From Candidatus Shapirobacteria bacterium (GTDB lineage Bacteria; Patescibacteriota; Microgenomatia; PFEM01; JBDRBL01), in NCBI GenBank assembly GCA_043822685.1, contig JBDRBL010000003.1, positions 4,659 to 68,658 of the forward strand: DNA of 64,000 nt, in the 5' to 3' direction. The position numbers and the translations under genes were made by a program. Under the pieces are notes generated by a model. It was not told the DNA's origin, did no database searches, and saw nothing but the letters and a program-made list of their open reading frames with translations. Shown here piece by piece: positions 96 to 31,910 of the stretch. The stretch's first letter is position 1; every line of letters starts with the position of its first letter.

Positions 96-437
96 CTATG
101 AGACGGTTTTCTTTTTGGGAGTTTTTGTTTCTTTGACTTCCGTTTTTGGTTTTGTCAAGATATCCAAAATCTTATCCAGTTTGTGGTTGATTGACTCCAG
201 TTGTTCGTTGTTTTGGGGGCGAGGGTTGTCCCGGCCACCGCTTTTTTCAAAACATTGACTGCAATAAACCGGCTTGTCGCCGGTGGGTCGAAAAGGTACT
301 TCGCAATCTTTGCCGCAGGTACTGCAAACGGCTTGATGCATCTCTCTTGGCCCGCGATCGCTAAAACTCCGTCGGCCAAAATCCCTCTGGCCGAAACTCC
401 TTCCTCCCGATCGATCATCCCGCCTAAAGTTACCCAT
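96..437 (-). CDS. small zinc-ribbon protein with a CxxC...CxxC motif, Arg/Gly-rich N-terminus and Lys-rich C-terminus; hypothetical nucleic-acid binding
   Basis: ORF track; CSTCGK...CSQC tetracysteine zinc-ribbon pattern read from the translation. Confidence 0.45.
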   Translation of the reverse strand: MGNFRRDDRSGGRSFGQRDFGRRSFSDRGPREMHQAVCSTCGKDCEVPFRPTGDKPVYCSQCFEKSGGRDNPRPQNNEQLESINHKLDKILDILTKPKTEVKETKTPKKKTVS

Positions 438-2666: not shown

Positions 2667-3047
2667 TTACTTCACCTCAAACCATTCGATTGGCGTGCGG
2701 TCGTCGGGTTCGCCGTTGTAATTGACGGTAATTTCCTCACCTTTTTTAATATTTTTAATGGCGCGATAGACCATGGTCACGGTGCGAAAGTTTTGTTTCC
2801 AGTCGGCGTTGGGCTCAAAGGAATGATTGTAAATGGAGCCGTAGCCTAGAACCATACAAGCGCCGCGAGTGGAACGCCAGGGATAAATGTACTGATCTAA
2901 AACTGTGTTTTCGCAGCGTTTCCGTTCCTTTGGGGTCAGAGGGATGATAGGGCAAACCTCGACGATTTCTCTCTTTTTAAAATTCTTTAAAGCGATTATT
3001 CCCCGGCCCTTGTTTTTAAAATTTTTGAGCTTAACATCTTTGATCAT
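2667..3047 (-). CDS. SET-domain protein methyltransferase (126 aa)
   Basis: GRGIIALKNF (GxG), YNHSFEPN (NHSCxPN-like) and EEITVNYN motifs; start reassigned to the MIKDVK ATG at 3047, because the longer 248-aa ORF runs over the divergent gene at 3093. Confidence 0.7.
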   Translation of the reverse strand: MIKDVKLKNFKNKGRGIIALKNFKKREIVEVCPIIPLTPKERKRCENTVLDQYIYPWRSTRGACMVLGYGSIYNHSFEPNADWKQNFRTVTMVYRAIKNIKKGEEITVNYNGEPDDRTPIEWFEVK

Positions 3048-3092
3048 GGGTTGAGTATAGCAAAAAACTCTCCTTTTTGGTAAGATAATTTT

Positions 3093-4151
3093 ATGGCTGA
3101 ATCGACGACCACCGGTGAAACAAAGCTGCCCAAAATTGTCCTGCAGATTGACAGAGACGCTCTTAAAAGACTTAATTTCGTGACGGTAGCTTACTCTCAT
3201 GTTGAACCGGAGATGTTTCCCACCAAAGATGCTTACGAAGCGGAGGTGGAGGTGGAGGAGCGGGCTAAAGAAGTGGCAGAAGCGGTTAAAAAACTGGGAA
3301 TTGAGTGTAAAACTTCTCCCGGTAATCAATACTTTTTGACCAACTTGCTGGTGGACAAGCCCGATCTGGTCGTTAATTTGGTTGATACTCTCAAGGGAAA
3401 AGATAGTCTGCAAACTTCAGTACCGGCGGCTTTGGAGCTATCCAACATTCCTTATACCGGAGCAGGCATGGAAGGCATGGTCATTGGTAATAATCGCAAT
3501 ATTACTAAAAGAATGTTGGTGGCCTACGATATTCCCACTCCCGCCTTTCAATTTATTCGTCGGGTGGGAACCAAAGTAGACGAGACTCTGGGTTTGCCCC
3601 TGATTGTCAAACTTAACGAGGGTGGTGGCAGCGTTGGTGTCGACAACAAGGCCGTTAAAGAGACCTTTCGTGAAGCCCAGCAAAAAGTTGACAAAATGAT
3701 TTCCCGCTATAAGTTGCCGGTGATCATGGAACAGTTTGTGGATGGGCCGGAAATTACGGCCTGTGTTTTTGATGACGGCAGTAAGAAACATGTTTTTATG
3801 GGCCAAAAGATTTTTCGTAAAAAACCCGATGGCAAGCATTTTTTTACCAGTCTTGAATCTTATGATGACGCGCGGGCCTATCGTTATGTTTATGTGGCTG
3901 AACCGTTGAGAAGCAAAATTGCCAAACTAACTATTAGGGCTTTTCGCGGTCTTCACCACGAGGATTATGCCAAATTTGATATTCGTTACGACGAACATAC
4001 CAATACGCCTTATTTTACCGACTCCAACCCCAATACCGCTTTTGGTCCCGATCTTGGCCTGCCTTTCACCGAAGTGGCGGCGATGCACAACATCAGCTTT
4101 GATGATTTGATTGCCAGCCTGCTTTCCAAATATGGTAAAGAAATCCGCTAA
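3093..4151 (+). CDS. ATP-grasp ligase of the D-Ala-D-Ala ligase (Ddl) fold family, non-canonical N-terminus
   Basis: MEQFVDGPEITACVF (Ddl-like EEFIxGxExT core); C-terminal FTDSNPNTAFGPD analogous to the Ddl EVNTxPG; lacks the canonical N-terminal GGxSxE motif. Confidence 0.65.
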   Translation: MAESTTTGETKLPKIVLQIDRDALKRLNFVTVAYSHVEPEMFPTKDAYEAEVEVEERAKEVAEAVKKLGIECKTSPGNQYFLTNLLVDKPDLVVNLVDTLKGKDSLQTSVPAALELSNIPYTGAGMEGMVIGNNRNITKRMLVAYDIPTPAFQFIRRVGTKVDETLGLPLIVKLNEGGGSVGVDNKAVKETFREAQQKVDKMISRYKLPVIMEQFVDGPEITACVFDDGSKKHVFMGQKIFRKKPDGKHFFTSLESYDDARAYRYVYVAEPLRSKIAKLTIRAFRGLHHEDYAKFDIRYDEHTNTPYFTDSNPNTAFGPDLGLPFTEVAAMHNISFDDLIASLLSKYGKEIR

Positions 4152-4749
4152 TTTTTATTTTCCCGACCTGCCCCGGGTAGTTCAAAAGAACAATGTCTAT
4201 TGCGGCCCGGCTTGCCTGGAGATGCTTACCGGTTTTCAGAATGTTCATCTTGATCAGGAGGATTTTGTTCAGGCCCTTGGTTTAGAGAAAAAAATTTACC
4301 AACGGGGTCTGTTTGTGGAGGAAATGGCACTGACGATAAACAAATTATTGCCCGAGTTGTGCTTTTGGTTTAAGGAGTGCGCCACAATTAAGGAATTGTC
4401 GCAATTGGTTAATGTTTTTAAACATCCGGTCGGGGTGGAGTGGCAGGGAGTTTTTCGCTACGCGACCCGGCAGGAGGCAGAAGACGATGATCCGGGTCAC
4501 TACAGCTTGATAACGGCCTTAGAGACGAAAAAGAACTTGATTATGATGGCCGATCCCTACAAGGATTATGCCGGCAAAGATCGAAAATTTACGGTTTTGG
4601 AGTTTGAACGGCGGTGGTGGGATATCAACAAAGTGGTTGATTCAAAAAGAGGAAAAACCAAAGAAGTTTATGACTATCGCGTTATGTTTATTGTCACGCC
4701 GCAAAAAGCGACTTTTCCCTTGCGTTTGGAAATGACCAAGATTAGTTAG
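4111..4749 (+). CDS. papain-like cysteine peptidase, C39 / BtrH-like family (start uncertain)
   Basis: N-terminal Q..VYCGPACLEM catalytic Cys motif and downstream GHYSLI His motif, typical of C39-like peptidases; overlaps the upstream ATP-grasp gene by about 40 nt. Confidence 0.5.
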   Translation: MPACFPNMVKKSANFYFPDLPRVVQKNNVYCGPACLEMLTGFQNVHLDQEDFVQALGLEKKIYQRGLFVEEMALTINKLLPELCFWFKECATIKELSQLVNVFKHPVGVEWQGVFRYATRQEAEDDDPGHYSLITALETKKNLIMMADPYKDYAGKDRKFTVLEFERRWWDINKVVDSKRGKTKEVYDYRVMFIVTPQKATFPLRLEMTKIS

Positions 4750-5038
4750 TACAGTTGCAATTGCGGTCGAAGGGGCAGGCGGCTTGGTAGCAGCGAAGCA
4801 ATTTGCCGCAACTGCTTCCCGGCGGGCACCAGTTTTTGCCGCAGATCAGTCCTTCACATTCGGTATCCTCGCCGCAGGGCCGATAACACTTCGTGTCCGC
4901 CGCCGCCGCCCTTTTTTGGTACAACTGCTTTTTGCTTATTTGCTGAAAAGATAAAGCCAGCGCCAAAATTAAAAATATTAAAAAAAACAAGGAACGTACG
5001 GTTGGTTGCCTTAAATTTCGCTTAAACTCCTCCCACAT
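4742..5038 (-). CDS. small secreted/anchored cysteine-rich protein: N-terminal hydrophobic signal/anchor plus a 10-Cys C-terminal domain of about 50 aa
   Basis: SLFFLIFLILALALSF hydrophobic segment; DTKCYRPCGEDTECEGLICGKNWCPPGSSCGKLLRCYQAACPFDRNCNC; convergent with the C39-like peptidase. Confidence 0.45.
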   Translation of the reverse strand: MWEEFKRNLRQPTVRSLFFLIFLILALALSFQQISKKQLYQKRAAAADTKCYRPCGEDTECEGLICGKNWCPPGSSCGKLLRCYQAACPFDRNCNCTN

Positions 5039-5106: not shown

Positions 5107-5490
5107 ATGTTGAGTTTTACCAAGAAGGTTGATTACGGTTTGGAACTAATGCTTGCCTTGGCGAGAAGCGATGGTCAGCCCCTCTCTTTGCGTCAAGTTT
5201 CTCGTCAAAGTCGCCTGCCTTATGCTTTTTTAACTCAAGTGGCGGTTGAATTGCGCCGCGCTGGTTTGATTGAAGCCAAAGAAGGGGCAACTGGGGGTTA
5301 TTTTTTGGCCTGTCCGCCCGAAAAGATCAATTTGGCCGAGATTGTGGCTGCGCTCAATGGAGATAGCGCCGAAAACTGCGAGGTTTGCGAGCGAGAAGGG
5401 ATTTGCCGGCCGCGGCAAATTTGGGCAGAGATCGAAGATGAATTGGCACAAAAGTTTAAAAACCGAACTTTAAAAGATTTAATTAAATGA
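5107..5490 (+). CDS. iscR: Rrf2 family transcriptional regulator (IscR-like)
   Basis: Rrf2 HTH region SLRQVSRQSRLPYAFLTQVAVELRRAGLI; C-terminal CEVCEREGIC cysteine cluster; upstream of iscS/iscU. Confidence 0.75.
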   Translation: MLSFTKKVDYGLELMLALARSDGQPLSLRQVSRQSRLPYAFLTQVAVELRRAGLIEAKEGATGGYFLACPPEKINLAEIVAALNGDSAENCEVCEREGICRPRQIWAEIEDELAQKFKNRTLKDLIK

Positions 5491-6641
5491 AAAAAACGAT
5501 CTATTTAGATAACGCGGCCACTACACCGGTAACCGAGGAGGTAGTTAAGGCGATGTTGCCTTATTTTACTGCCCAATACGGCAACGCTTCCGAGTTTCAT
5601 TATTGGGGTCAGCAGGCGCGCGCGGCGATTGAAACCAGTCGAGCAACTTTGGCTGATTTTTTAGGCGCCAAGCCGGAAGAAATTATCTTTACTTCCGGGG
5701 CCACCGAATCAATTAACTTAGCTCACAAAGGGTTGATAGAGGGTTTAAAGGTTCAAAAGTTCAAAAATTCTCCGCATATCATCACTTCGCAAATTGAGCA
5801 CAAGGCGGTGCTGGAGACTTGTAAACATTTGGAGAAGCTTGGTTGGGCGACAGTCACTTATCTCCCTGTTGATCAATATGGCCTGATCAATCTTAGTGAT
5901 TTAGAAAAAGCGATCAAACCAGAAACAGTTTTGGCGAGCATTATGTATGTTAATAACGAAGTCGGGACGATTGAGCCGTTGATCGAAATCGGTCAATTGT
6001 TGAAAAAAATGGATCATAAAATTTATTTTCACACCGACGCCACCCAAGCGATTCAATGTTTGGATTGCAATATCGACAGATTGGGCGTTGATCTTTTGTC
6101 TTTAACTGGCCATAAATTTGGCGCGCCTAAAGGAGTAGGAGCCTTGTATGTTCGCCGAGGTACACCTCTGGTCCGTCAACAGGATGGCGGCAGTCAGGAA
6201 TCAGGATTGCGTGCGGGTACGGAGAACGTGCCGTATATCGTTGCCTTAGGAAAAGCAACGGATTTAATTAGTAAATTACGAATTTTAAGAGATGAATTGA
6301 TTAGTGGTGTTTTAAAAATTTCGGGGGTTAAATTGACCGGTCATCCGGTTAAGCGAGCACCGCATGTTGCTTCTTTTGTTGTTGATGGGGTGGAAGGTGA
6401 AGCAATTTTATTGCATTTATCCGATGCGGGCGTGGCGGCTTCAACCGGCTCCGCCTGTAATAGTAGTAATTTGGAGGCCTCGCATGTTTTGAAAGCGATG
6501 GGGCTGTCGGAGGAGACCTCTCACGGTTCCTTGCGTTTGTCCTTAGGACCGCAAACGACCAAAAAGGAAATTGATTATGTTTTAGAGATTTTACCTAAAA
6601 TTATTAGTGATTTAAGGAGGATGGCGCCCAAAAATGTTTAA
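5487..6641 (+). CDS. iscS: cysteine desulfurase IscS/NifS
   Basis: class V aminotransferase fold; PLP-lysine motif SLTGHKFGAPKGVGALYVR; C-terminal GSAC active-site cysteine. Confidence 0.85.
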   Translation: MKKTIYLDNAATTPVTEEVVKAMLPYFTAQYGNASEFHYWGQQARAAIETSRATLADFLGAKPEEIIFTSGATESINLAHKGLIEGLKVQKFKNSPHIITSQIEHKAVLETCKHLEKLGWATVTYLPVDQYGLINLSDLEKAIKPETVLASIMYVNNEVGTIEPLIEIGQLLKKMDHKIYFHTDATQAIQCLDCNIDRLGVDLLSLTGHKFGAPKGVGALYVRRGTPLVRQQDGGSQESGLRAGTENVPYIVALGKATDLISKLRILRDELISGVLKISGVKLTGHPVKRAPHVASFVVDGVEGEAILLHLSDAGVAASTGSACNSSNLEASHVLKAMGLSEETSHGSLRLSLGPQTTKKEIDYVLEILPKIISDLRRMAPKNV

Positions 6642-7032
6642 ACAATTATATTCCGAAAAAGTTTTACAACATGTTCGGCACCCCCAAAATATGGGCGAGA
6701 TTAAAAATCCCGATGGCGTGGCCACGGTGGGCAACAAACAGTGCGGGGACATTATGAGAATGTTTATCAAGGTTAAAAATAAAGACGGAGTTGAGTATCT
6801 CGATAGCGTCAAATTTCAAACTTTGGGATGCGGCGCCGCGATTGCTACCTCTTCCATTGCCACGACGATGATTAAAGGGAAGCCCTTGGTCGAGGCAGAA
6901 AAATTGACCAATCAGGCAATTGTCGATAATTTGGGCGGTTTGCCCGCGGCCAAACTCCACTGTTCTGTTTTGGCCGCGCAAGCCCTCCAAAAGGCAATCC
7001 AGAACTATCGGGAAAAGAACGTAAGGGCTTAA
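6634..7032 (+). CDS. iscU: Fe-S cluster assembly scaffold IscU/NifU
   Basis: three conserved Cys: NKQCGD, LGCGAAIATS, KLHCSVLA. Confidence 0.85.
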   Translation: MFKQLYSEKVLQHVRHPQNMGEIKNPDGVATVGNKQCGDIMRMFIKVKNKDGVEYLDSVKFQTLGCGAAIATSSIATTMIKGKPLVEAEKLTNQAIVDNLGGLPAAKLHCSVLAAQALQKAIQNYREKNVRA

Positions 7033-8271: not shown

Positions 8272-9198
8272 ATGAAGTTACCGAGCATTAAAGATTTGGC
8301 GATCAAAAATAAGCGAGTTTTGCTCCGGGTCAATTATGATTTGCCTTCTTTAAGTGATACTTCTCGAGTTGATGAGTCTTTGCCCACGATTAAATATCTT
8401 TTGAGACAAAATGCAAAAATTACTTTGATTTCTCATTCGAAGTCTAGCCTAAAACCGGTTGCCGCCTATTTATCTAAACTTCTTCCCGGAGTGAAAGATT
8501 GTTATTTGCGGGAAAATCTGCGTTTTGACCCGCGCGAGGAGGCCAATGATCCTAGTTTTGCTAAAGAAATAGCTTGTGACAAAGATTTTTTTATCAATGA
8601 TGCCTTTGCGGTTTCCCACCGGAAGCATGCCTCCATTGTGGGTTTACCGAAAATTTTACCCACAGCCTTTGGTTTTGATTTTTTGGAGGAGATTGAAAAT
8701 TTATCTAAAATTTTAGAGAATCCAGCTCGACCAAATGTTTTAATTATCGGTGGAGCAAAAGAAGATAAATTGGCGGATTTAACTAAATTGGCGGCAAAAT
8801 TCGATCAAGTTTTAATTGGCGGCCGGTTGCCAGTCCTTGTTAGCAATCAACTATCAATCATGAATAATCTTGTCATTGCTAAACTAAATTCAAGGGGAAA
8901 AGATATCTCAAGAGACTCAATCGAGCAGTTTAAAAAAATTATTGTTGGAGCACGAACGGTTGTTTTATCCGGACCGATGGGTTGCTATGAAGAAGAAGGT
9001 TCGGAAACAGGGACGAAAGCGGTTTTTGAGACAATTGCTCGAGGCCCTGCTTTTAGTGTGGCTGGCGGCGGAGATACAGAAATGGCGTTGGTAAAATTTG
9101 CTCTCAAGGACAAAATCGGTTATATTTCTTCTGGAGGGGGAGCAATGTTAGCTTTTTTAGCTAACGGCACTTTGCCGGGAATTGAGGCGGTTTTATGA
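8272..9198 (+). CDS. pgk: phosphoglycerate kinase (short form)
   Basis: N-terminal KRVLLRVNYDLP and C-terminal GGGAMLAFLANGTLPGIEAV PGK signatures. Confidence 0.75.
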   Translation: MKLPSIKDLAIKNKRVLLRVNYDLPSLSDTSRVDESLPTIKYLLRQNAKITLISHSKSSLKPVAAYLSKLLPGVKDCYLRENLRFDPREEANDPSFAKEIACDKDFFINDAFAVSHRKHASIVGLPKILPTAFGFDFLEEIENLSKILENPARPNVLIIGGAKEDKLADLTKLAAKFDQVLIGGRLPVLVSNQLSIMNNLVIAKLNSRGKDISRDSIEQFKKIIVGARTVVLSGPMGCYEEEGSETGTKAVFETIARGPAFSVAGGGDTEMALVKFALKDKIGYISSGGGAMLAFLANGTLPGIEAVL

Positions 9199-10169
9199 TT
9201 AAGATTGGCATTAATGGCTTTGGGCGGATCGGTCGAGTCGTGCTCCGCGCGATTTTGGAGCGTTATTCTGATCAAATTGAAGTTGTGCTGATCAATGCCT
9301 CCGATTCGATGACTCAAGCCGGCTGGTTACATCTTTTAAAACATGATTCGGTTTATGGTCTTTTTTCCAAAGGGGTAGCGATTCCTTTTTCTTTTCAACG
9401 TGATCCGGCTCTGATTCCCTGGCAGGATTTCGGAGTTCAGGTGGTTTTGGAATGTACCGGGGCCTTCCGTAATAAAGAGGCCTTGGAAGCCCATCTTCGC
9501 GGCAACAATCTTAAGGTTGTTGTTTCTGCTCCGGCCAAGGGAGTAGAAACTTATGTTTTGGGAGTCAATGATCAAAATTATCAAGGGGCTAAAATTATCA
9601 GTAACGCCTCCTGTACTACTAACTGTATTGCCCCGATCACTAAAATTGTCTGGGATAATTTAGGGATTCAAAAAGCGATTATGAGCACGGCACACGCGGT
9701 TACGGCCGATCAGGAATTGGTGGACGGTTCAAATAAAGATTGGCGTCGGGCTCGATCAGCTTTGACCAACGTTGTTCCGACTTCGACCGGGGCGGCAATT
9801 GCTGTCACCGAGGTGTTACCCATGCTAAAAGGTCTTTTTGGCGGGTTGGCTTATCGAGTTCCCGTTAGTTGTGGTTCTTTGGCCGATTTAACTCTTGTTA
9901 CCACCAAACGGACAACCTCAGAGCAGATCAATGAGATTTTTACCATGGCAGCCAAGAATCAATACAAAAATTTGGTTCAGGTAACAGAAGAACAACTGGT
10001 TTCGCATGATATTATTGGTAATCCCGCCTCCGCCATTGTCGATTTAAATTTAACTCAAGTGATTGATGGTGATTTAGTCAAGATAGTTGCTTGGTACGAT
10101 AACGAGTATGGTTATTCTTGCCGTTTAGTCGAAATGGCATTAATGGTAATCGAAAATGACGCGAAGTAA
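9195..10169 (+). CDS. gap: glyceraldehyde-3-phosphate dehydrogenase
   Basis: INGFGRIGR NAD-binding motif; SNASCTTNC active site; WYDNEYGYS. Confidence 0.9.
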   Translation: MIKIGINGFGRIGRVVLRAILERYSDQIEVVLINASDSMTQAGWLHLLKHDSVYGLFSKGVAIPFSFQRDPALIPWQDFGVQVVLECTGAFRNKEALEAHLRGNNLKVVVSAPAKGVETYVLGVNDQNYQGAKIISNASCTTNCIAPITKIVWDNLGIQKAIMSTAHAVTADQELVDGSNKDWRRARSALTNVVPTSTGAAIAVTEVLPMLKGLFGGLAYRVPVSCGSLADLTLVTTKRTTSEQINEIFTMAAKNQYKNLVQVTEEQLVSHDIIGNPASAIVDLNLTQVIDGDLVKIVAWYDNEYGYSCRLVEMALMVIENDAK

Positions 10170-10839
10170 ACTGGCCAGTTATCTTGATTTGGCGAATCAT
10201 CATGCCAATGCTGTCCCTGACGACATTAAAAAGCTTTGTGATGATGTTAAAAAATTTGGTTTTCACACTGCCTTTGTTAATCCTTGTTATATTGGTTTGG
10301 TTCGCGAGTGCCTTTTTGACAGCAGAAGCAAGATTGGAACGGTTATTGCCTTTCCTTTGGGCCAAGAAACGAGTGAGATCAAAAATATTGCTACTCTTGG
10401 CGCGGTTAACGAAGGCGCTGATGAGTTGGATATCTGTATGAATGTTGGTCTTTTTAAAGCCGGCAAGTTTACTGTGGTCAGAAACGAAATGCGCAAACTT
10501 GTAGATACCGCCAAAAGCTTTAAACCCAAGACGGTCGTTAAGTTTATTATTGAAACCGGTTATCTGACCGGTGATGAAATTCGTAAAGCCTCTCAGTTGG
10601 TTGTTGAGTCAGGCGCCGATTTTGTTAAGACTTGTTCCGGGTTGGGGCCGCGTGGGGCCAAATTAGAAGACGTTTCTCTAATCAAGGGAGTGGTAGGAGA
10701 CAAAGTGAAGATCAAAGTCGCAGGGGGGATTACCACTCTCCAGCAGGTGAAGGATTTCCTCGATTGGGGTGCGGATAGGATCGGCACTTCTCATGCGGTG
10801 GAGATTTATAACGAATTCTTAAAAACAAGTCAAAAATAA
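10156..10839 (+). CDS. deoC: deoxyribose-phosphate aldolase (DeoC family)
   Basis: FVKTCSGLG Schiff-base lysine region, KVAGGITT, FVNPCYI. Confidence 0.7.
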   Translation: MTRSKLASYLDLANHHANAVPDDIKKLCDDVKKFGFHTAFVNPCYIGLVRECLFDSRSKIGTVIAFPLGQETSEIKNIATLGAVNEGADELDICMNVGLFKAGKFTVVRNEMRKLVDTAKSFKPKTVVKFIIETGYLTGDEIRKASQLVVESGADFVKTCSGLGPRGAKLEDVSLIKGVVGDKVKIKVAGGITTLQQVKDFLDWGADRIGTSHAVEIYNEFLKTSQK

Positions 10840-13333: not shown

Positions 13334-14224
13334 ATGATTGATTTGCATACCCATACCACTATGTCGGACGGGGTTTTGTCACCGGAACAATTAGTAGAAA
13401 AAGCCAAAGAAAAAGGTCTATCCGCTTTAGGGATTGCTGATCATGATTCGGTTGAAGGCGTAGCCGCGGCTCAAGCGGCGAGTAAGGAATGTGCTTTGGA
13501 GATTGTTCCGTGCATGGAATTGTCCTGTTATTGGCTGGAACGAAACCGGAAAGAATTTCACCTTTTGGGTTATTATTGTAATCAGCAAAATGGGGAATTG
13601 ATCGAGAGATTGGAATTTTTTCGTCAAGAACGTTTGCGCCGCGCCCAAAAATCCTTAAAGCTCTTAAACGATTTAGGTTATTTTGGTGATTGGGATTATT
13701 TGATTAAAATGGCCGTTGGCACGGTTGGTCGACCTCATCTGGCTCGTACTGTTTTGGAAAATCCTCAAAATCGAGAGAAATTGGTTAAGGAGTTTGGTCA
13801 ACTTCCTCATCTTGGTCAATTTATCGAAAAATACCTTATTTTTGGCCAATCTGCCTATGTCGAAAAAGCCGGTTTTGAACCAGATAAGGCGATTAAATTA
13901 ATTCATCAGGCGGGTGGAGTGGCGATTTTGGCTCACCCGTGTTTTGACTTAGAAATGGAGGTAGAGGATACATTGAAAATTTTTAAAGAATGGGAACTCG
14001 ACGGCCTGGAAGCGATTGCTCCTTACAAAAATCCACCGGAAACCAAGATTAAAATCGATTTTTTTTTAAAAATGGCTCGAAAATTTAATTTTTTGGTTAC
14101 CGGCGGTTCCGATTATCACGGCTTGGATGGTGTTGGCGCTGGCCTTGGTCTGCTCGAGTGGGGCTTGAGTATTGATGACCAATATTTAGTTGACTTAAAA
14201 ACATGCCTGGAATCAAAAAGATAA
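13334..14224 (+). CDS. PHP-domain metal-dependent phosphoesterase
   Basis: MIDLHTHTTMSDG and GIADHD PHP motifs. Confidence 0.7.
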   Translation: MIDLHTHTTMSDGVLSPEQLVEKAKEKGLSALGIADHDSVEGVAAAQAASKECALEIVPCMELSCYWLERNRKEFHLLGYYCNQQNGELIERLEFFRQERLRRAQKSLKLLNDLGYFGDWDYLIKMAVGTVGRPHLARTVLENPQNREKLVKEFGQLPHLGQFIEKYLIFGQSAYVEKAGFEPDKAIKLIHQAGGVAILAHPCFDLEMEVEDTLKIFKEWELDGLEAIAPYKNPPETKIKIDFFLKMARKFNFLVTGGSDYHGLDGVGAGLGLLEWGLSIDDQYLVDLKTCLESKR

Positions 14225-14369
14225 TTCCCGGTAAAAAGAAGGGTCAATATTCCGGTAGTCGCCGTGGGGTTTTGCTGGTTTTTGCGCTTACTCTCCTTTT
14301 GGCCTTTTGTCTTTACCTTGTGCCGATGTTGCTGGCATTTTGGCAGCGTTTTACCGCTCCGGCTTTTGT

Positions 14370-16478
14370 TTAGAGCGATTGTGTCGGGGAGGGAGCAGGA
14401 GAGGGACAGTGATACTTTGGGGCGGTACCGGCCAAAAAGAGTTCTTTCTTCCTCGTGGGTGAACAAATCTCTGTTTCCTCCATCCCTTCCGGTCTTGGCC
14501 AGCCCCGGTTTTCTTTTAAAATCAGATTCATAATTTTGTTCCAAATCGGTGAAGCACCGGTAATTCCCGATGCCACATAGCTCATCGGCGAATTGTCATT
14601 ATTGCCTACCCATACCGCGGTCAAAAAGTCCGGCGTGTAGCCAATCGTCCAGTTGTCCCGGCGGTTTTGAGTTGTGCCGGTTTTAACGGCGACGTTAGGA
14701 AAGTCTTTGATGTTCAGCCACGAATGTATCCCAAACGCCGGTGACCGCGCTTCTGGATCAGCCAAAATATCGGTTAAAAGATAAGCAATTCGTTCGTCCA
14801 TCACCTTTTCTTTTTTAACGGTCATTTTTTCTAAACTCTGTCCACGCGCGTTTTTCACTTCCAAAATCGGGTTTAGTTCTACTTTTTGTCCCAGATTAGC
14901 TAAAGCGCCGTAAACTACGGCCATATCCGTCATTTTTACTTCGCCCCCGCCCAAAGTTAAGGATAAACCAAAACGTGATCGCTCTTTCCAAGTTGTAATT
15001 CCCATTTTTTCTCCCTGATCAATCATTCTGTTGACTCCCAGCGCGGCCAGCACTTTAACTGCCGGTACGTTATAGGATGAAGCTAGCGCTACCCGTAGCA
15101 CTACCTCGCCGTGAAACCGGTCGTCATAGTTGTTGGGTGAATACGGCGGCTGGCCGGCGACCTCGTAAGTGATGGGTGTGTCCGACAATAAGGTTGCGGC
15201 GGTAAAGCCATTGGCCAAAGCTACAGCGTAATTAATCGGTTTAATTGCCGAGCCTGGTTGGCGGGAGCGGGTTGTTACATTGACATTGCCGTCATTTTCC
15301 AAATCGAAATAGTCTTTTGATCCGACCATGGCCAGTATCTCTCCCGTTTCTGGCCTAGTTACCAAAGCCGCCCCGTTGCTGATTTTTAACGGTTCGATCT
15401 TGCCGATTTCCTCGCTGACAATTTTTTGTACTTTTTTTTGTAACTCCAGATCCAGCGAGGTGTAAACTTCCAGTCCGCCGCTTTCCACCATCGGCTGGCC
15501 ATATTTTTGCTCCAACAGCTCTCTAATGTACATCACGTAATGCGGCGCCTGAATTTCATTTCGCTGTGGCGCGAAATGCACCTCCTCCTTTTTGGTTGCT
15601 TCTTCCGCTTCCTTAGTAATAAACTTTTCTTCTCTCATTCGGCGAAGGACTTCTTCCTGCCTCTGTTTTGCCAATTCCGGGTTAGCGCCAAATGGTGAAT
15701 AAGTCGTTGGTGAAGCCGGTAATCCGGCCAGCAGTGCCGCTTCAGCCAAGTTTAGTTTCGCGGCTGGTTTATCAAAATAACTCCAGCTGGCCTCCTCAAT
15801 TCCGTAAGCCGTTCCGCCAAAGCCTACCTCGTTTAAATACATCTGCATAATTTCGTCCTTGGAAAATTGCCACTCTACCCTCAAGGCCAGTAAGATTTCC
15901 CTGATCTTGCGTGACCAGGTTTTTTCCGGAGTCAAGAGCGCATTTTTGACCAATTGTTGAGTAATCGTTGACCCGCCAACCAACTTTTGTTCCCGAATAT
16001 TTTTCCAAGCGGCTCGAAAAATTCCCTTTAAGGACAAGCCGCGGTGTCGATAAAACTCGGCATCTTCAATGGCGACCACTGCCTGCACTAGGTGAATCGG
16101 CAACTCGTTTATTTTGATCAGTGTTCGGCTTTGGCTGCGGTAAATTTTGTAGAGCAATTGACCGTTGCGATCATAAATTTTGGTTGTCAATAAAGGCTGT
16201 CGGTTTATCAATTGATTTGGATCCGGTAAATCCCTCAAAATTAAAAAATAAAAGTTAAAAAATAAAAACAAAAATCCAACTAAAAAAGCGGGGACTAAAA
16301 TCTTTTTAAAATTAAATTTAAGTTTAGCTGGAGGAAAAACGATAACAGTTTTTTTACGAAGATAGCGAGGTTTTTTTTGACTGGCTTTTTCCAGCAGCCA
16401 AACAAGAAGCCTAAAAAAGGGCTGGCCTATTTTTTGCAAAAACAAAGCTATCGGTGAGCCTGTCCTTCGCCGCTTCAT
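14370..16478 (-). CDS. class A penicillin-binding protein (transglycosylase + transpeptidase)
   Basis: GT51 motifs EDAEFYRHRG, GGSTITQQLVKN; transpeptidase SxxK/KTG regions; N-terminal TM. Confidence 0.85.
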   Translation of the reverse strand: MKRRRTGSPIALFLQKIGQPFFRLLVWLLEKASQKKPRYLRKKTVIVFPPAKLKFNFKKILVPAFLVGFLFLFFNFYFLILRDLPDPNQLINRQPLLTTKIYDRNGQLLYKIYRSQSRTLIKINELPIHLVQAVVAIEDAEFYRHRGLSLKGIFRAAWKNIREQKLVGGSTITQQLVKNALLTPEKTWSRKIREILLALRVEWQFSKDEIMQMYLNEVGFGGTAYGIEEASWSYFDKPAAKLNLAEAALLAGLPASPTTYSPFGANPELAKQRQEEVLRRMREEKFITKEAEEATKKEEVHFAPQRNEIQAPHYVMYIRELLEQKYGQPMVESGGLEVYTSLDLELQKKVQKIVSEEIGKIEPLKISNGAALVTRPETGEILAMVGSKDYFDLENDGNVNVTTRSRQPGSAIKPINYAVALANGFTAATLLSDTPITYEVAGQPPYSPNNYDDRFHGEVVLRVALASSYNVPAVKVLAALGVNRMIDQGEKMGITTWKERSRFGLSLTLGGGEVKMTDMAVVYGALANLGQKVELNPILEVKNARGQSLEKMTVKKEKVMDERIAYLLTDILADPEARSPAFGIHSWLNIKDFPNVAVKTGTTQNRRDNWTIGYTPDFLTAVWVGNNDNSPMSYVASGITGASPIWNKIMNLILKENRGWPRPEGMEETEICSPTRKKELFLAGTAPKYHCPSPAPSPTQSL

Positions 16479-16537
16479 AGCCGTATTTTAACAGAGAATT
16501 ATTTTCTGGCAACAAGAAGAGATGGCAGATGAACGAA

Positions 16538-18721
16538 TTATAATACTGGGGCGGGATGGATGATATTTTCGATTTTAATAATTTCGGCTTGAGCGGGGAA
16601 GGGGCAATCAAGACAAAATTTAGTACTCAATGGATCGGTAATGATATTTTTTTCTTGAATTTCTTTATTTTCCGGTAAAGTCTGTTCGTTGGCTAAAGCA
16701 CCGGTTGTTTTATCAATTTCCACGCCTTGTTTTAAGTTTTCCATTGGAGGGAGAGTGTCAGTCAAAAAATACTCAAATCGCGTTTGACAAGGTGCTGCCG
16801 GATTGGGAGAAAAACCCGAAGTGGCGCAAATTTCTGCTCCCACCAGGCCCTCCGGCAGGGAGGGCCACTGCTCTTTTTTGTCCTTTAGGGCGTAACTGAT
16901 AATCTTGTTCCAAATTGGTGAGGCCCCGGTAACTCCCGAAGCCACATAGCTCATGGGCGAATTGTCATTGTTGCCCACCCAAGCAACTACCAGAGTGCTT
17001 GGCGTCCAGCCAATTGTCCAATTATCCCGCAAATCGTTTGTTGTGCCTGTTTTGACCGATACTTCCGGATGGTTTTTAACTGCCAGCCATGAACTGGTTC
17101 CGAAAGCGGCCGACCTGGCGCCATTATCCAGCAAGATGTGATTGATTAAATAAGCCACTTCCATTGGCAGGGCCCGTTTGCCTTCTTGGTCCGGCTGGTC
17201 AAAAATCACTTTTCCGCTAATATCCTCTACTTTTTTGATTGCCCACAAATCTTGACGAATTCCTAAGTTGGCGAAGGTTGAATAGGCGGTTGCCAAATCA
17301 TACATGGTCACTTCGCCCCCGCCCAAAGTTAAGGATAAGCCGTAATTTACCGGCTCTTTCCAGGTCGTTAACCCCATCTCTTTACCTTTAGCCACCACTT
17401 CTTCCAGCGTATTTAAAGCGAGCACTTTTACCGCGGGGATGTTATAAGAATTTGCTAAGGCAAATCGCACGGTCACTGGTCCGTGAAATTGGCCATCGTA
17501 ATTCACTGGACAATAATTCTTTTGACCAGCGACTTGAAAGCAGGTCGCGACATCATTCAAAACTGTTGCCGGGGTAATTAATTTTTTTTCCAAGGCGGCA
17601 GCGTAATTAACAGGCTTAATTGCCGAGCCTGGCTGTCTGGGTCGAGTAACAACGTTAACGTTGCCGTCGATTTCTTGATTAAAGTAATCTCTTGATCCGA
17701 TCATGGCCAAGATTTCTCCCGTTTCCGGCTTGGTCACTAGAACCGCCCCGTTGCTGATTTTTTGCTTAACCAGTTTAGCGGTTTCGCTAGCCACGGTGGT
17801 TTGTGCCCAATCTTGCAAATCCAGATCTAGTGTTGTCGTGACGGTTAAGCCTCCTTGGGCGACCATCTTTTCGCCATATTTTTCTACCAGCAAATCTTTG
17901 ACGTACAAAACAAAATGCGGCGCTTTCATCCGATTGTCCGGTTCGGCATAAACAAGATCTTCTTTTAGAATTTTTTCCTTCTCTTCCGGTTTTAATTTGC
18001 CCATTTCTATCATTTGCTGTAACACCAGCGCCTGCCTCTGTTTAGCCAATTCCGGGTGTGCCCCAAAAGGGGAAAAACGTGTCGGCGATACCGGCAAGCC
18101 AGCTAATAAAGCCGCCTCCGCTAGGCTCAATTCCCGGGCATGCTTGCCAAAATACATCTCGGCGGCGGTCTCAATTCCCCAAGCTGTCCCCCCATAAGGC
18201 GCCTGATTTAAATACATCTCTAAGATTTGATCCTTGGAATAACTTATCTCGGTTGCCGCGGTTAAAAAGGCCTCTCTGATCTTTCGTTTAATTGTTCTTT
18301 CCGGGGTTAGCAGTGAGTTTTTTACCAGTTGTTGGGTCAAGGTTGATCCGCCCTGCAATGATTTTTTGAAAATGGTGTTGTAAGCTGCTCGAGTGATTCC
18401 TTTTAAATCGAAGCCGTGGTGCTGGTAAAAATTTTTATCTTCGGCGGCCAGTGTTGCCCAAGGGATGTATTCCGGCAATTCGCTTAACTTGACCGGCGTT
18501 CGGTTTTTCTCCGCATAGATCTCATAAAGTACTTCCCCGTTTCGATCTAAAATCCGGCTCGATGCCGGCATGTTATTGTCTGTTAGGCGAGCAGGGGAGG
18601 GGAGATCAATGAAAACATAAACCAAACCGCCGGCCGCGGCCAGCGCCAGAATTGCCAATCTCCTTTTGAACCTCACGTTGAATATTATAGCATTCTGGTT
18701 TATCATTGCTTCAGTGACCAA
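16538..18721 (-). CDS. class A penicillin-binding protein, paralog of the adjacent PBP
   Basis: EDKNFYQHHG, GGSTLTQQLVKN; tandem with 14370-16478; start may instead be the MINQ Met at 18706. Confidence 0.85.
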   Translation of the reverse strand: MVTEAMINQNAIIFNVRFKRRLAILALAAAGGLVYVFIDLPSPARLTDNNMPASSRILDRNGEVLYEIYAEKNRTPVKLSELPEYIPWATLAAEDKNFYQHHGFDLKGITRAAYNTIFKKSLQGGSTLTQQLVKNSLLTPERTIKRKIREAFLTAATEISYSKDQILEMYLNQAPYGGTAWGIETAAEMYFGKHARELSLAEAALLAGLPVSPTRFSPFGAHPELAKQRQALVLQQMIEMGKLKPEEKEKILKEDLVYAEPDNRMKAPHFVLYVKDLLVEKYGEKMVAQGGLTVTTTLDLDLQDWAQTTVASETAKLVKQKISNGAVLVTKPETGEILAMIGSRDYFNQEIDGNVNVVTRPRQPGSAIKPVNYAAALEKKLITPATVLNDVATCFQVAGQKNYCPVNYDGQFHGPVTVRFALANSYNIPAVKVLALNTLEEVVAKGKEMGLTTWKEPVNYGLSLTLGGGEVTMYDLATAYSTFANLGIRQDLWAIKKVEDISGKVIFDQPDQEGKRALPMEVAYLINHILLDNGARSAAFGTSSWLAVKNHPEVSVKTGTTNDLRDNWTIGWTPSTLVVAWVGNNDNSPMSYVASGVTGASPIWNKIISYALKDKKEQWPSLPEGLVGAEICATSGFSPNPAAPCQTRFEYFLTDTLPPMENLKQGVEIDKTTGALANEQTLPENKEIQEKNIITDPLSTKFCLDCPFPAQAEIIKIENIIHPAPVL

Positions 18722-27979: not shown

Positions 27980-28275
27980 CAGGTTAAATATCAAATTTTT
28001 AAACTGTCCGAATAATTTTTAATTCTTTCATAATTTGGTTTGTCATTGTAAAAAACTCATTTTTGGAGAGCAAAGATTTGGATTTTTCGTCTAATTTTTT
28101 CTCAAAATTTTCTCCGATTTTATCAAGATCATGTTTGGTGATGATCATGATTTAATTGAAAGATAATCTCTGGGAGAAGTCAAGATAATTTGTTGCCACT
28201 TTGACAAAGTAGTCATTAGTTGATAAACTGAACAGTAGTAGATAGTTTTTATGGGTTTAGTTTTATTGTTCGATA

Positions 28276-28956
28276 ATGACTCGAGTAATTGATCGGCGTA
28301 AAGCCATCTATTTTCGTCAGCAGGGTAAGACTTACAGTGAAATTAAAAAAGAATTAAATCTTTCCAAAAGCACTCTTTCTGGTTGGTTAAGTAAATATCC
28401 ACTCACTCGAGAACAACTTGAGAAGGTAAAATCTAGAATTAATTTTAAAAAGAATTTGGCTGTTGAAAAATGTCGTCTTACTAAACTAAACAAATGGAAA
28501 AATCGACTTAAACAAACTTATGAAAACGAAAAAAATAGGTTGTTGAATCTGACGGAAAAAGAGTTATATATTGCTGGTTTGTTCTTATATTGGGGAGAAG
28601 GATCAAAAGCAATAAAAAATGCTATTTCTCTTAATAACACTGATCCCAAAGTGGTTAAATTTTATTTATTTTGGCTGACCAAAATTCTCCACTTTGATAG
28701 AAACAAAATTAGAGTTCAAGTTCATCTCTACGATGATATGAATATCAAGCGTTCTTTAGATTACTGGAGCAGGGAATTGAGGATGCCTATGAACCAATTT
28801 GCTAGACCATATATAAAAAAGAGCAAAAGAATTGAGGTTGACCAAAAGGGTTTTGGGCACGGCACTTGTACCTTAAGAATAGGCAACGTTCTTCTTAAGG
28901 AGAAGATTCTTATGGGGATAGAAGCGATTGCTGATCATTATAACCAAAAAATTTGA
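28276..28956 (+). CDS. HTH-domain protein with a C-terminal region weakly resembling a LAGLIDADG endonuclease fold; hypothetical, low GC
   Basis: N-terminal GKTYSEIKKELNLSKSTLSGWL HTH; YIAGLFLYWGEGSK resembles a LAGLIDADG motif with an insertion; AT-rich codon usage. Confidence 0.35.
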   Translation: MTRVIDRRKAIYFRQQGKTYSEIKKELNLSKSTLSGWLSKYPLTREQLEKVKSRINFKKNLAVEKCRLTKLNKWKNRLKQTYENEKNRLLNLTEKELYIAGLFLYWGEGSKAIKNAISLNNTDPKVVKFYLFWLTKILHFDRNKIRVQVHLYDDMNIKRSLDYWSRELRMPMNQFARPYIKKSKRIEVDQKGFGHGTCTLRIGNVLLKEKILMGIEAIADHYNQKI

Positions 28957-28971
28957 TAAAATACGCTTTAG

Positions 28972-29044
28972 GGGGCGGTAGCTCAATGGTGGAGCGGCAT
29001 CCTTATAAGATGAAGGCTTGATGGTTCGAATCCATCCCGCCCCA
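28972..29044 (+). tRNA. tRNA with UAU anticodon (reads AUA; Ile)
   Basis: manual cloverleaf fold: 7-bp acceptor GGGGCGG/CCGCCCC, D-stem GCTC/GAGC, anticodon loop CUUAUAA, T-arm GATGG-TTCGAAT-CCATC, discriminator A; a G27-A43 mismatch and a 6-nt variable loop make the fold imperfect. Confidence 0.65.
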
Positions 29045-29056
29045 CAGAAATGGATT

Positions 29057-29135
29057 TTTCGGCGAGTCAGAGATGGCGCTCGCCGCGCCCGCTCCCGCCC
29101 CCCCCCACACGCAGCGCTACCTTCACGCTCGGCCT
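29057..29135. repeat. GC-rich element A with an internal hairpin; imperfect direct repeat of element B at 30075-30125
   Basis: shares GGCGAG-N4-5-AGATGGCGC, TCGCCGCGC and GCGCTACCTT blocks with element B; GC-rich in an otherwise AT-rich stretch. Confidence 0.4.
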
Positions 29136-29404
29136 TCAGTCTCGTAAAAAGTCGGCTCGGTCAGTCCTTTCTTAAAAAGAAATGATCTCAAAGAAAAACG
29201 CAAAAATTTTAAAGAACTAAATCGATAAACTTTAAAGGCGCAACCGGTGGAACCAACTAAGAATCGCTTCTTGTTGTCCGATTGCGCCATTGAAAAAGCG
29301 ATTCCCTAAAAGTTGGTTCCAAATATCAATATACCAAATTCCTAAGGATTTTGGTATACTCATTTCAATATAAGTACAAGTTTAGAAAGAGAGGAGGTGA
29401 AAAT

Positions 29405-29986
29405 ATGCAAGAAGCTAGCAATAAAGAGCCTGTCAACAGTAATTTAGGCGATATTTTACAAAGGTCGCGTGGCGAGACCGATGCTGCTTTGAATGCAAAG
29501 GAGGTAGCAGAACAAGCTGAGCGAGATAGACAATCGGCAATTGATCAAGCATTGAGAAATATGGTTAGCAATAAGGACTTATTAAAATTTCTCAAGGCAA
29601 GAGATAAAGCGGTTACCTTGGTAGAGGGTAAACAGAAAACAGTTAATGCAGGAAAACCACTTGTAGAAATTACTGGTAATGGAAGAATAATAATTTCCCA
29701 CAGGAATTGGAAGGACGGAAGTGTCAGGGCAACTGATAGTTATGGGCTTGTCGATGTCAACGACCCAAATAGTAGAGTAAACTCTGACCAAATGGAGTAT
29801 CTTAATAGATTTGTTGTGGATGGAAAAGCGTTTATATTAAAATCTACAAGCAGTGCAATTAGTCCTAAAGTAGGTGATTTCCTTGCAGCAACCTATTTAG
29901 GTAATGATGTTTTGGGAACAAATATAACTGCAGACCATATAAGCCGATCGCTGACAGCAGGGGTTACAGAGCTCGCTAATAAGTAA
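29405..29986 (+). CDS. hypothetical protein (193 aa), low-GC, apparently strongly expressed orphan
   Basis: start reassigned to the ATG at 29405 preceded by a very strong SD AGAGGAGGTGA and a TG-extended -10 TGGTATACT; no signal peptide; flanked by elements A and B. Confidence 0.5.
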   Translation: MQEASNKEPVNSNLGDILQRSRGETDAALNAKEVAEQAERDRQSAIDQALRNMVSNKDLLKFLKARDKAVTLVEGKQKTVNAGKPLVEITGNGRIIISHRNWKDGSVRATDSYGLVDVNDPNSRVNSDQMEYLNRFVVDGKAFILKSTSSAISPKVGDFLAATYLGNDVLGTNITADHISRSLTAGVTELANK

Positions 29987-30074
29987 GTGAAATTATTAAA
30001 ACTCGGCGGAGCCGAGCAAAAATCGCGCGCGAAACATAAGCGAGGCCGAAGGCCCCTCCAGAGGCGGGCAGGCG

Positions 30075-30125
30075 AGCGTGAAGATGGCGCGGCGAGTGGG
30101 CGGCGGCACTCGCCGCGCTACCTTT
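30075..30125. repeat. GC-rich element B with a perfect 10-bp hairpin (GCGCGGCGAG...CTCGCCGCGC); partner of element A
   Basis: direct sequence comparison with 29057-29135. Confidence 0.4.
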
Positions 30126-30166
30126 GAAACTCAGTTCGAATTTTTTCGTAAAGAGTCCACTCCGTT

Positions 30167-31036
30167 TTACAACTCTTCCAATTTGACGTTTTCTTTGACC
30201 TTGTTCTCCACCAGTTTTAAGTATTTTTCGGTGGTGGAAAGCCTTTTGTGGCCAACCAGTTGCTGCAAAGTTACCACTGGGGCTCCGGCCGCCAACTGGT
30301 GAGCAATAAAAGTGTGCCGCAAGTCATTAACCGTGGCATTTTTGACTTCTGCGATTCGGAAGTAGCGATCAATGGCGGCTCTGATATTGCGCACCAGCAA
30401 TTGTTTGCCGGTTTTGGTTACAAAGATACTCTGACACTTTGCCATCGACCGATGGTTTAAGTATTTTTCCAGCGCTTTTTTGACTGAATCGTTTAATGGG
30501 ACGAGCCTTTCTTGGTGTCCTTCAAACGGCCGAACTCTCAAGCGATTTTCTTGCACATCAGCCAATTCCAGCCTCGCCAGCTCACTGATTCGTAAACCTG
30601 TTTGCAGTAAAATTTCAATTACGGCGGCTATTCGGACATCTCCTCGTGCCGCATCTCGTAAGGCTCGATATTCCATTTTGGATAACACTCTGGGTGCTTT
30701 TGATTCATAGCGCGGATAGGCCACCGTCTGGGTTGGATTTTCGCGAATTACTCCTTGTTGGGTTAAAAATCGAAAAAAAGTTTTGATTGAATTTAACTTT
30801 CGAGAAATTGATTTGGCAATGTATTTCTTTTGCGTGAGATCTTTTTTAAACTCTTCGATTGTTGCCGCGGTTACCTGGTCGACCTTGTCGATTTCTTTAG
30901 CCGCCAGAAATTTATTCAACTGCTCAACATCTTTTCCGTATGCTAAAATAGTTGCTGAAGCGCGGCCCTGTTTTTTTAGTTCGCTAACAAAGTTATTTTG
31001 GGCAACTATTAATAATACTTTCTCGTTTTCGTTCAT
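30167..31036 (-). CDS. tyrosine site-specific recombinase (XerC/XerD / phage-integrase family)
   Basis: C-terminal catalytic LRHTFIAHQL...GHKRLSTTEKY (R..HxxR..Y) and an N-terminal SAM-like domain. Confidence 0.8.
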   Translation of the reverse strand: MNENEKVLLIVAQNNFVSELKKQGRASATILAYGKDVEQLNKFLAAKEIDKVDQVTAATIEEFKKDLTQKKYIAKSISRKLNSIKTFFRFLTQQGVIRENPTQTVAYPRYESKAPRVLSKMEYRALRDAARGDVRIAAVIEILLQTGLRISELARLELADVQENRLRVRPFEGHQERLVPLNDSVKKALEKYLNHRSMAKCQSIFVTKTGKQLLVRNIRAAIDRYFRIAEVKNATVNDLRHTFIAHQLAAGAPVVTLQQLVGHKRLSTTEKYLKLVENKVKENVKLEEL

Positions 31037-31095
31037 GAAGTTGCAAGCAGTTGGCCCATAATAACACCGAGAGGGTTGGCTGTCAATTGGAAAAA

Positions 31096-31434: not shown

Positions 31435-31505
31435 CAGGGGAGGGAATCGAACCCTCGACCTCGGCGTTATGAATGCCGCGCTCTTACCAACTGAGCTACC
31501 CTGCC
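31432..31505 (-). tRNA. tRNA-Met (CAU anticodon; elongator-type, could be Ile2/lysidine)
   Basis: manual cloverleaf on the minus strand: acceptor GGCAGGG with a G1-U72 wobble, anticodon loop UUCAUAA, T-loop TTCGATT. Confidence 0.7.
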
Positions 31506-31907: not shown

Positions 31908-31910
31908 TGA

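Follow-up and report, generated by a model that had tools for sequence, protein, structure and literature searches.

In glutathionylspermidine synthetase/amidase (GspSA), an ATP-dependent amide synthetase is fused to a cysteine amidase of the papain-like CHAP type, which cleaves the bond that the synthetase makes, and in the TTL/vasohibin cycle an ATP-grasp ligase is opposed by a papain-clan cysteine peptidase. ATP-grasps and C39 peptidases also co-occur in graspetide gene clusters (PMC8939145), and in graspetide-type branches 7 and 8 the ATP-grasp is strongly linked to several unrelated peptidase families in loci that lack a precursor (Makarova et al. 2022, PMC8939145). Here we analyse a 64,000-nucleotide stretch of a Candidatus Shapirobacteria contig (JBDRBL010000003.1; the whole stretch is referred to as the window), in which the gene for a Ddl-derived ATP-grasp ligase overlaps that for a standalone C39-like cysteine hydrolase. 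An initial annotation of this DNA proposed a four-gene peptide-modification cassette in which these two genes were joined by a SET methyltransferase gene and an open reading frame (ORF) for a Cys-rich mini-protein. The ATP-grasp/C39 pair is constant among relatives and its flanks vary, and we therefore conclude that the real unit is a two-gene module found across the Microgenomates and not a four-gene cassette. The four genes concerned are as follows.

2667-3047, minus strand: SET methyltransferase (Pfam PF00856), 126 aa from an internal ATG.
3093-4151, plus strand: Ddl-derived ATP-grasp ligase (Pfam Dala_Dala_lig_C), 352 aa; core gene 1.
4132-4749, plus strand: standalone C39-like (papain-fold) cysteine hydrolase, 205 aa, predicted to be cytoplasmic; core gene 2.
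4742-5038, minus strand: protein with ten cysteines and a signal or anchor sequence, 98 aa; judged to lie outside the module.

The ORF list contains all four ORFs where the initial annotation placed them, with the motifs that it quoted (Q..CGPACLEM and GHYSLI); it was also right that GGxSxE is missing from the ATP-grasp, and its assignments hold, with Pfam confirming three and the Cys-rich ORF falling into no family. The ORF list gives an alternative peptidase start, a TTG at 4111 yielding 212 aa; the NCBI annotation of an identical peptidase begins at the ATG at 4132 (205 aa), a start that overlaps the ATP-grasp stop by 20 nt. The SET gene is divergent from the ATP-grasp gene across a 45-nt spacer, and the Cys-rich ORF converges on the peptidase gene with an 8-nt overlap of their ends.

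Scanning one genome per species gave 105 loci, 80 of which were retrieved, and the locus statistics given here rest on 84 non-redundant loci from distinct species; names such as L090 denote the contigs or loci of relatives that were compared with the window. A profile search finds the peptidase in 68 of the 84 loci; its position in 65 of them is no more than 200 nt downstream of the ATP-grasp, with both genes on the same strand. The start of the peptidase ORF precedes the stop codon of the ATP-grasp in 37 loci. The next commonest neighbour clusters in an all-against-all ORF clustering (ribosomal protein L33, SecE, NusG, S21 and RNase HII) are each present in no more than 16 of the 84 loci and reflect clade synteny, and a Pfam census of the 150 immediate neighbours shows no family more than five times and no third conserved partner. 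The same picture is seen in three long contigs whose contexts were recovered independently, where the pair is constant and the flanks are unrelated.

The two activities are also found joined in one protein, as a JGI metagenomic entry (P0241) encodes a single 524-aa ATP-grasp::C39 polypeptide, the ATP-grasp part of which is 55% identical to the window protein. We note that P0241 has a Tyr in place of the otherwise invariant Arg before the oxyanion Gln. A different fusion occurs in seven Collierbacteria-type loci (L023 at 9068-10321, L016, L018, L020, L021, L027 and L036), where the C39 domain follows a GNAT, an N-terminal Acetyltransf_3 domain of the RimJ/RimL type (E = 1e-10), and a standalone GNAT paralogue is present in 19 of the 84 loci, just upstream of the ATP-grasp; in L069 it lies between the two core genes. 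Five Gottesmanbacteria loci without the C39 have a C45/AAT Ntn-hydrolase (PF03417, E = 8.5e-31) two genes downstream, and in L041, L047, L048 (9001-10335) and L070 the C39 is replaced, directly downstream of the ATP-grasp, by an uncharacterised protein of 416-444 aa. A fifth member of this family is found in L064 (664-1902, minus strand), upstream of the ATP-grasp and on the opposite strand. Its similarity to C45 is slight (NCBIfam E = 0.011; 19.5% probability with hhalign), and the family has invariant GCQ and HTEED motifs, the alignment pairing GCQT with HCTI and HTEED with HNEDW of C45; together these are suggestive of a C45-type enzyme. The 416-444-aa gene is followed in L047 and L048 by one for a 180-aa protein without a family match, and L048 also contains a second Ddl-like ATP-grasp. 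PDB sequence searches gave nothing useful with either the GNAT or the 444-aa partner, and only spurious repeat-protein matches with the peptidase.

If the ligase depends on a partner able to cleave or transfer amides, one would expect to see one cysteine amidohydrolase swapped for an unrelated one. On the basis of the conserved adjacency, the overlapping start and stop codons and the gene fusions, the ATP-grasp and the C39-like enzyme do work together, as the initial annotation had supposed, and their coupling is far beyond coincidence.

The simplest alternative is that the ATP-grasp is a housekeeping D-Ala-D-Ala ligase with coincidental neighbours, and its family matches might be taken to say so. 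The protein belongs to the ATP-grasp superfamily and matches Pfam Dala_Dala_lig_C (E = 1.1e-15), with weak matches to GARS_A and ATP-grasp_4; all of its significant family and PDB matches are to Ddl, L-amino-acid ligases and PurD, the best family matches being to Ddl, and several JGI entries of the family are annotated as D-alanine-D-alanine ligase. However, it scores only 92-100 bits against the NCBIfam Ddl models (TIGR01205 and NF002378), whose cut-offs are 243-246, and Pfam finds no Dala_Dala_lig_N domain. The GGxSxE signature is absent throughout the family, which has VAYSHVERE at this position where the canonical Ddl proteins of L012 and L006 have GGESSERE.

Residues were compared by alignment to Escherichia coli DdlB, with DdlB numbering; we regard the DdlB sequence used as valid because it is 39-40% identical to the full-length L006 and L012 ORFs, which match both Pfam Ddl domains (204 bits). 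Among the nucleotide and Mg ligands, K144, E180, E187, D257 and N272 are retained and invariant in the family, with K97R and E270D as conservative changes. H63, S150, K215/Y216, R255, G276, S281 and L282, which are substrate or catalytic residues in DdlB (where E15 binds D-Ala1), fare differently: the family has invariant replacements of H63 by D, S150 by G, R255 by K, G276 by A, S281 by L and L282 by P, and at K215 either no residue or Ser, although a HMMER alignment indicates that Tyr may persist at the Y216 position. The same substitutions are visible in HMMER alignments to solved Ddl structures, and in the DdlB alignment the canonical Microgenomates Ddl proteins (L006 and L012) keep every residue that the family has replaced. 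These canonical ddl genes share their contigs with the ATP-grasp/C39 pair, so that the family member is not the sole Ddl there; the window itself has no second Ddl in its 64 kb.

A plain divergent housekeeping Ddl, which the initial annotation had kept as its simplest alternative, is thus excluded by the scores, the residues and the coexisting canonical ddl, and, with the peptidase coupling added, the chance that such an enzyme merely has coincidental neighbours is next to nil. The enzyme is better described as a probable Ddl paralogue in which the ATP/Mg machinery is kept and both substrate sites appear to have been rebuilt. A murF/ddl neighbourhood, which the initial annotation would have read as the mark of an ordinary Ddl, does occur in a few relatives, but the ATP-grasp is a paralogue there and most of its D-Ala-binding residues are replaced. 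In the window (3093-3150) and in homologues the ATP-grasp has a low-complexity, Lys/Glu-rich N-terminal tail of 0 to ~70 residues.

Conservation of the ATP-grasp is unusually high. The best 120 clusters matching it are all 71-100% identical, identity across the Microgenomates is 65-89%, and clustering of a library at 50% identity leaves essentially a single representative of the entire family. In one genome pair the ATP-grasp is 86% identical where the canonical Ddl is 60%, and it also exceeds NusG and S21; between genome pairs with NusG at 59%, S21 at 66% and canonical Ddl at 60%, it is 72-82% identical. Loci with lineage names come from Shapiro-, Collier-, Woese-, Gottesman-, Roizman-, Cerri- and other Microgenomates. 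Many GTDB representative metagenome-assembled genomes (MAGs) that carry the pair (L010, L013-L015, L019-L021 and others) bear the title 'uncultured Gammaproteobacteria', 'Pseudomonadales', 'Spirochaetia' or 'Chloroflexia'. Their gene architectures are those of named Microgenomates and their neighbours are near-identical, and because gene order and neighbour identities match in this way we regard the titles as probably unreliable.

The peptidase is only marginally recognised by its Pfam families, matching Peptidase_C39_2 with E = 1.9e-5 (25.7 bits against a cut-off of 24) and C39 with 23.5 bits, just above the cut-off. All 120 of the homologues listed are standalone proteins of 190-220 aa. An alignment of 24 homologues shows R15, Q18, C24, H123, D141, R151, R161, W162, W163 and D164 to be invariant, so that the catalytic Q, C, H and D are all in place, among them the Cys/His/Asp triad whose lack would have counted against the initial annotation. 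The AlphaFold2 (AF2) model is confident, with a predicted local distance difference test (pLDDT) score of 90, and as modelled it confirms a papain/C39 fold with the Q/C/H/D catalytic set. Directly before the catalytic His is a poly-acidic loop of variable length (window ~4470-4510). A fold search returns UfSP-type proteases (~12.6) and the BtrH-N protein CtaG (11.9) and points to no single substrate class. The N-terminus reads without a signal sequence, and because of this the peptidase is predicted to be cytoplasmic.

We propose that the pair forms a self-contained cytoplasmic module that makes and breaks an amide bond, with a small molecule as the leading guess for its substrate, a reading that we consider about evenly poised between right and wrong. 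In the first step, as judged from family chemistry and the retained catalytic residues, the ATP-grasp would activate a carboxylate as an acyl-phosphate and couple it to an amine, giving a peptide or isopeptide bond. In the second, the translationally coupled C39-like hydrolase would act on this amide or a related one by way of a thioester acyl-enzyme, the outcome being either hydrolysis (amidase or editing activity) or acyl transfer to another acceptor, a transpeptidase reaction like that of phytochelatin synthase; the conserved Q/C/H/D set, the fold and the gene fusion are the grounds for this step. The substrate is neither D-Ala-D-Ala nor the neighbouring Cys-rich protein, and there are faint indications that it may be a small metabolite of the amino-acid or peptide type with a basic, lysine-like amine. 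Lineage-specific enzymes, the GNAT in Collierbacteria and relatives and the SET protein in a few lineages, would then act on the same amine-bearing substrate. Descent from Ddl and L-amino-acid ligases, the replacement of the C39 by a C45-type enzyme, and the aminomutase and GNAT contexts of a sister family described below all point towards a small molecule.

Several observations weigh against this proposal. About 13 loci have enough flanking sequence and yet no nearby C39, and the P0241 fusion is counted as supporting but not decisive because it is a singleton, N-terminally truncated at the edge of a 2.2-kb metagenomic contig. In all members of the family the Ddl catalytic Arg (R255) has become Lys, and K215 is absent, from which it follows that the chemistry may differ from that of standard ATP-grasps. 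The AF2 model of the ATP-grasp, built from an alignment of 18 sequences, has a pLDDT of 58, with the central domain below 50, and is too poor for an examination of pockets. Finally, the unusually high conservation of the ATP-grasp is no less compatible with a macromolecular substrate than with a small molecule, and the same is true of the link to SET-domain enzymes, which are protein lysine methyltransferases and normally act on proteins.

The SET protein is a clear family member (PF00856, E = 2.9e-17; 63.5 bits against a cut-off of 22.4), with GRG, YNHS and GEEITVNY motifs that are invariant in four orthologues. An iterative search finds it in three of the 84 ATP-grasp loci (the window, L024 and L055) and always immediately adjacent; it is divergent and upstream of the ATP-grasp in the window and L024, and co-directional just downstream of the C39 in L055. 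L090 and L091 have the same arrangement as the window. It thus adjoins the pair in only these few loci and is not a core component. When 80 metagenomic SET loci are examined in turn, the surroundings of most close orthologues are free of ATP-grasp genes; L109 contains the family pair, with the C39 ~1.1 kb away. Other Ddl-like ATP-grasps lie within 65 nt of a SET gene in L108 and L136. In L144 a sister-family ATP-grasp gene (111-1133) and the start of a SET gene (1093-1494) share 41 nt, and the two genes are apparently translationally coupled. Immediate adjacency of a Ddl-like gene and SET is seen three times in 172 kb of near flank where ~0.5 is expected by chance, a rough estimate that assumes 2-3 Ddl-like genes per Mb, and because of this excess the SET gene is probably a non-random, if sporadic and loose, accessory of the ATP-grasp clade. 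The two papers returned by a full-text literature search contain no description of a bacterial SET and ATP-grasp pairing.

These associations raise the question of whether the pair instead writes and erases a mark on a protein. The ATP-grasp would attach amino acids, singly or several, to the C-terminus or a lysine side chain of a conserved cellular protein and the C39 would remove them, with SET methylating and GNAT acetylating the same protein; parallels are RimK/RimB acting on ribosomal protein S6 and TTL/vasohibin/TTLL12 acting on tubulin. Few proteins of these loci are as well conserved as the ATP-grasp, SET recurs beside the ATP-grasp clade in independent arrangements, and the fused GNAT is of the Acetyltransf_3 (RimJ/RimL) type. 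The length of the ATP-grasp N-terminal tail also correlates weakly with that of the C39 acidic loop (Spearman rho = 0.49 over 55 loci, uncorrected for phylogeny and with a few anchors mis-set), which is a hint at most. Eukaryotic TTLL12 joins a SET-like domain to a TTL ATP-grasp domain (PMC3520985). Nonetheless, neither the neighbour clusters nor the Pfam census contains a co-conserved candidate for the target protein, and SET adjoins the pair in only ~4% of loci. Moreover, the ATP-grasps known to tail proteins are of the RimK and TTL families and not of the Ddl family, whereas the best matches here are Ddl and L-amino-acid ligases, and C45/AAT enzymes typically act on small-molecule amides. 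We therefore view modification of a protein as a doubtful explanation, though one to be taken seriously. A fuller version, a bacterial protein 'tail code' that a Ddl-derived ATP-grasp writes and a C39 erases while SET methylation and GNAT acylation compete for the amine, seems to us unlikely; if it is right, TTL/vasohibin/TTLL12 would have a counterpart in prokaryotes, and the Ddl branch its first member that modifies proteins.

A role in peptidoglycan-precursor synthesis has also to be weighed, with the ligase making an alternative dipeptide or side-chain addition for the stem peptide and the peptidase removing the standard or unwanted species, in the manner of VanA and VanX. Ddl is the closest family, there is a weak NCBIfam match to an archaeal pseudomurein Ddl-like protein, the pair lies beside a canonical ddl and/or a MurF-like ligase in L012 (in the order ddl, MurF-like ligase, ATP-grasp, C39), L008 and L006, and a few other neighbours are wall-related (GH3, VanW/PG_binding_4 and a transglycosylase). 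But the residues that bind D-Ala1 and D-Ala2 are replaced, the ddl/murF neighbourhood is confined to ~4 of the 84 loci, and the wall families each account for at most three of the 150 neighbours. A cyanophycin-synthetase-like reading of the ATP-grasp and Mur ligase in L012 and L008 was considered and rejected, as the Mur ligase resembles MurF, has a canonical ddl as its neighbour and is limited to ~4 loci.

The nearest relatives of the ATP-grasp bear on the same question. These are 33-37% identical and form a more diverse sister family in bacteria of the Candidate Phyla Radiation (CPR) and in DPANN archaea (e.g. Aenigmarchaeota), and several members share the Lys-for-Arg change. DPANN archaea have no murein, and because the sister family occurs in them a strictly peptidoglycan role for the clade seems improbable; taking all of this together, we rate a wall-precursor module as quite unlikely. 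The sister-family loci contain none of the C39, the 416-444-aa cluster or the C45; in one locus each the context is an overlapping GNAT, a second Ddl-like ligase with a KamA-family aminomutase, nothing recognisable, and a ThiF-like gene. The recurring theme among sister-family neighbours is enzymes acting on amines or amino acids (GNAT, KamA and SET). On a Magasanikbacteria contig (L089, 5001-8071), two tandem sister-family Ddl-like ATP-grasp genes are followed by a KamA-family radical-SAM amino-acid 2,3-aminomutase gene; the best NCBIfam matches of its product are lysine, glutamate and arginine 2,3-aminomutases and EpmB, which suggests that this locus may ligate a beta-amino acid.

We turn now to the Cys-rich ORF, which the initial annotation had offered as the substrate of a graspetide- or butirosin-like cassette. 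As a ribosomally made peptide with modifications added after translation (RiPP), the Cys-rich protein would be modified by the ATP-grasp and SET enzymes and would undergo processing by the C39. In the window, L090 and L091 all four genes do lie side by side. Using tblastn, homologues of the ORF are found only in L090 (7668-7964, minus strand) and L091 (2565-2861, minus strand), at 66% identity and with all ten Cys in register, the gene callers having missed it in both source annotations. These two loci are the closest relatives of the window, with ATP-grasps 86% identical, and the ORF is absent from the 84 other loci that keep the pair. It has no match in Pfam, NCBIfam or PADLOC. The protein has a basic N-terminus, a hydrophobic segment and a domain of ~50 residues with the ten Cys, and is likely to be exported and disulfide-bonded; the SET, ATP-grasp and peptidase enzymes have no export signals. 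Graspetide precursors are encoded beside the ATP-grasp and have a leader motif and a Thr/Ser-Asp/Glu-Lys core (PMC8939145). By comparison, the Cys-rich protein shows this signal or anchor segment and lacks both the double-glycine and the Phhx(1,2)h leader. The pair has no small ORF conserved along with it, the C39 is standalone with no ABC transporter fused or co-conserved, and the closest family matches of the ATP-grasp are Ddl. A macrocyclase would also not be expected to stay 65-89% identical across a superphylum-level group. The butirosin analogy fares no better, as there is no BtrH_N match, carrier protein or set of pathway genes. The Cys-rich ORF is a real gene and a local bystander, and a cassette of either type is very improbable.

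The surroundings of the locus contain several further features. Directly upstream of the SET gene, a gene for an HTH_17/excisionase-type DNA-binding protein (1993-2271) overlaps one for a Fic/Doc 'death-on-curing' toxin (2246-2665), the couple at 1993-2665 forming a type II toxin-antitoxin pair. Just downstream of the Cys-rich ORF is an Fe-S cluster assembly operon (5107-7032) encoding a Rrf2-family regulator, a NifS-like cysteine desulfurase and a NifU-like scaffold, and the position of the Rrf2 gene is kept in L090 and L091. A basic protein of 113 aa is encoded near the left end of the window (96-437, minus strand); its zinc-ribbon-like CxxC...CxxC motif (CSTCGKDCEVPFRPTGDKPVYCSQCF) lies between Arg/Gly-rich and Lys-rich tails. 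Four tRNA genes on both strands occupy 28972-31981, in or near the stretch of lowest GC (0.369 at 28001-30000). GC skew is positive in all 2-kb bins except for two adjacent ones (14001-18000), and the nearly monotonic rise of the cumulative skew fits a single replichore with strong strand asymmetry. Two other explanations for the locus were tried and rejected: a riboswitch, for which Rfam gave the four distant tRNAs alone, and anti-phage defence, for which PADLOC gave no match to the four proteins at E <= 0.01.

The pairing, the replacement of the hydrolase, the GNAT fusions and the SET neighbours define a compact two-protein system, which might produce, in CPR bacteria, either a novel small peptide metabolite or a novel modification of proteins. 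The genomes of the large, uncultured Microgenomates group are tiny, and a gene kept at 65-89% identity throughout the group is very likely to be important. The label of D-alanine-D-alanine ligase that the family carries is a widespread mis-annotation, and metabolic reconstructions that score it as ddl would go astray. The sister family carries the question of substrate into the DPANN archaea.

How, then, does this pair compare with systems already described? The closest family by sequence is Ddl/VanA, which shares the C-terminal ATP-grasp domain with the ATP and Mg ligands kept; it differs in that the present family is without the N-terminal Ddl signature, has the D-Ala-binding and transition-state-stabilising residues replaced, and coexists with a canonical Ddl in relatives. 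There is a likeness of logic to GspSA, as in both an ATP-dependent amide ligase is coupled to a papain-clan cysteine amidase, here by the single P0241 fusion and by translational coupling; however, the ligase here is Ddl-like and the hydrolase is C39-like and not CHAP, and no homology is claimed. The peptidase resembles PCAT/ComA-type C39 domains and Peptidase_C39_2 in its fold and Q/C/H/D set, with the Pfam cut-offs passed marginally, but it differs in being a standalone protein of 205 aa, predicted to be cytoplasmic, with no ABC transporter and no gene for a double-glycine substrate, and in having its own invariant Arg and Trp residues and the acidic loop before the catalytic His. Its similarity to phytochelatin synthase-like enzymes such as Nostoc Alr0975 lies below the family threshold (14.5 against 24.9 bits), and there are no glutathione pathway genes nearby.

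Among associations of ATP-grasps with peptidases in the absence of a precursor, branches 7 and 8 of Makarova et al. and RimK/RimB are the obvious parallels; their ATP-grasps are microviridin/RimK-like and that of the present system is, to judge by its matches, Ddl-derived, the taxa and partner peptidases differ, and here the C39 is replaced in some lineages by a C45-type enzyme. The combination of a SET-like domain with an ATP-grasp ligase in TTLL12 is an analogy of domain combination only, for the ATP-grasp here is not of the TTL type and SET is a separate gene with a sporadic distribution. All of the enzyme families, and the logic of a ligase plus an amidase, are thus already known, whereas the Ddl-derived family, its spread through the Microgenomates, its obligate-looking coupling to a C39, the GNAT fusions and the SET association appear to be undescribed.

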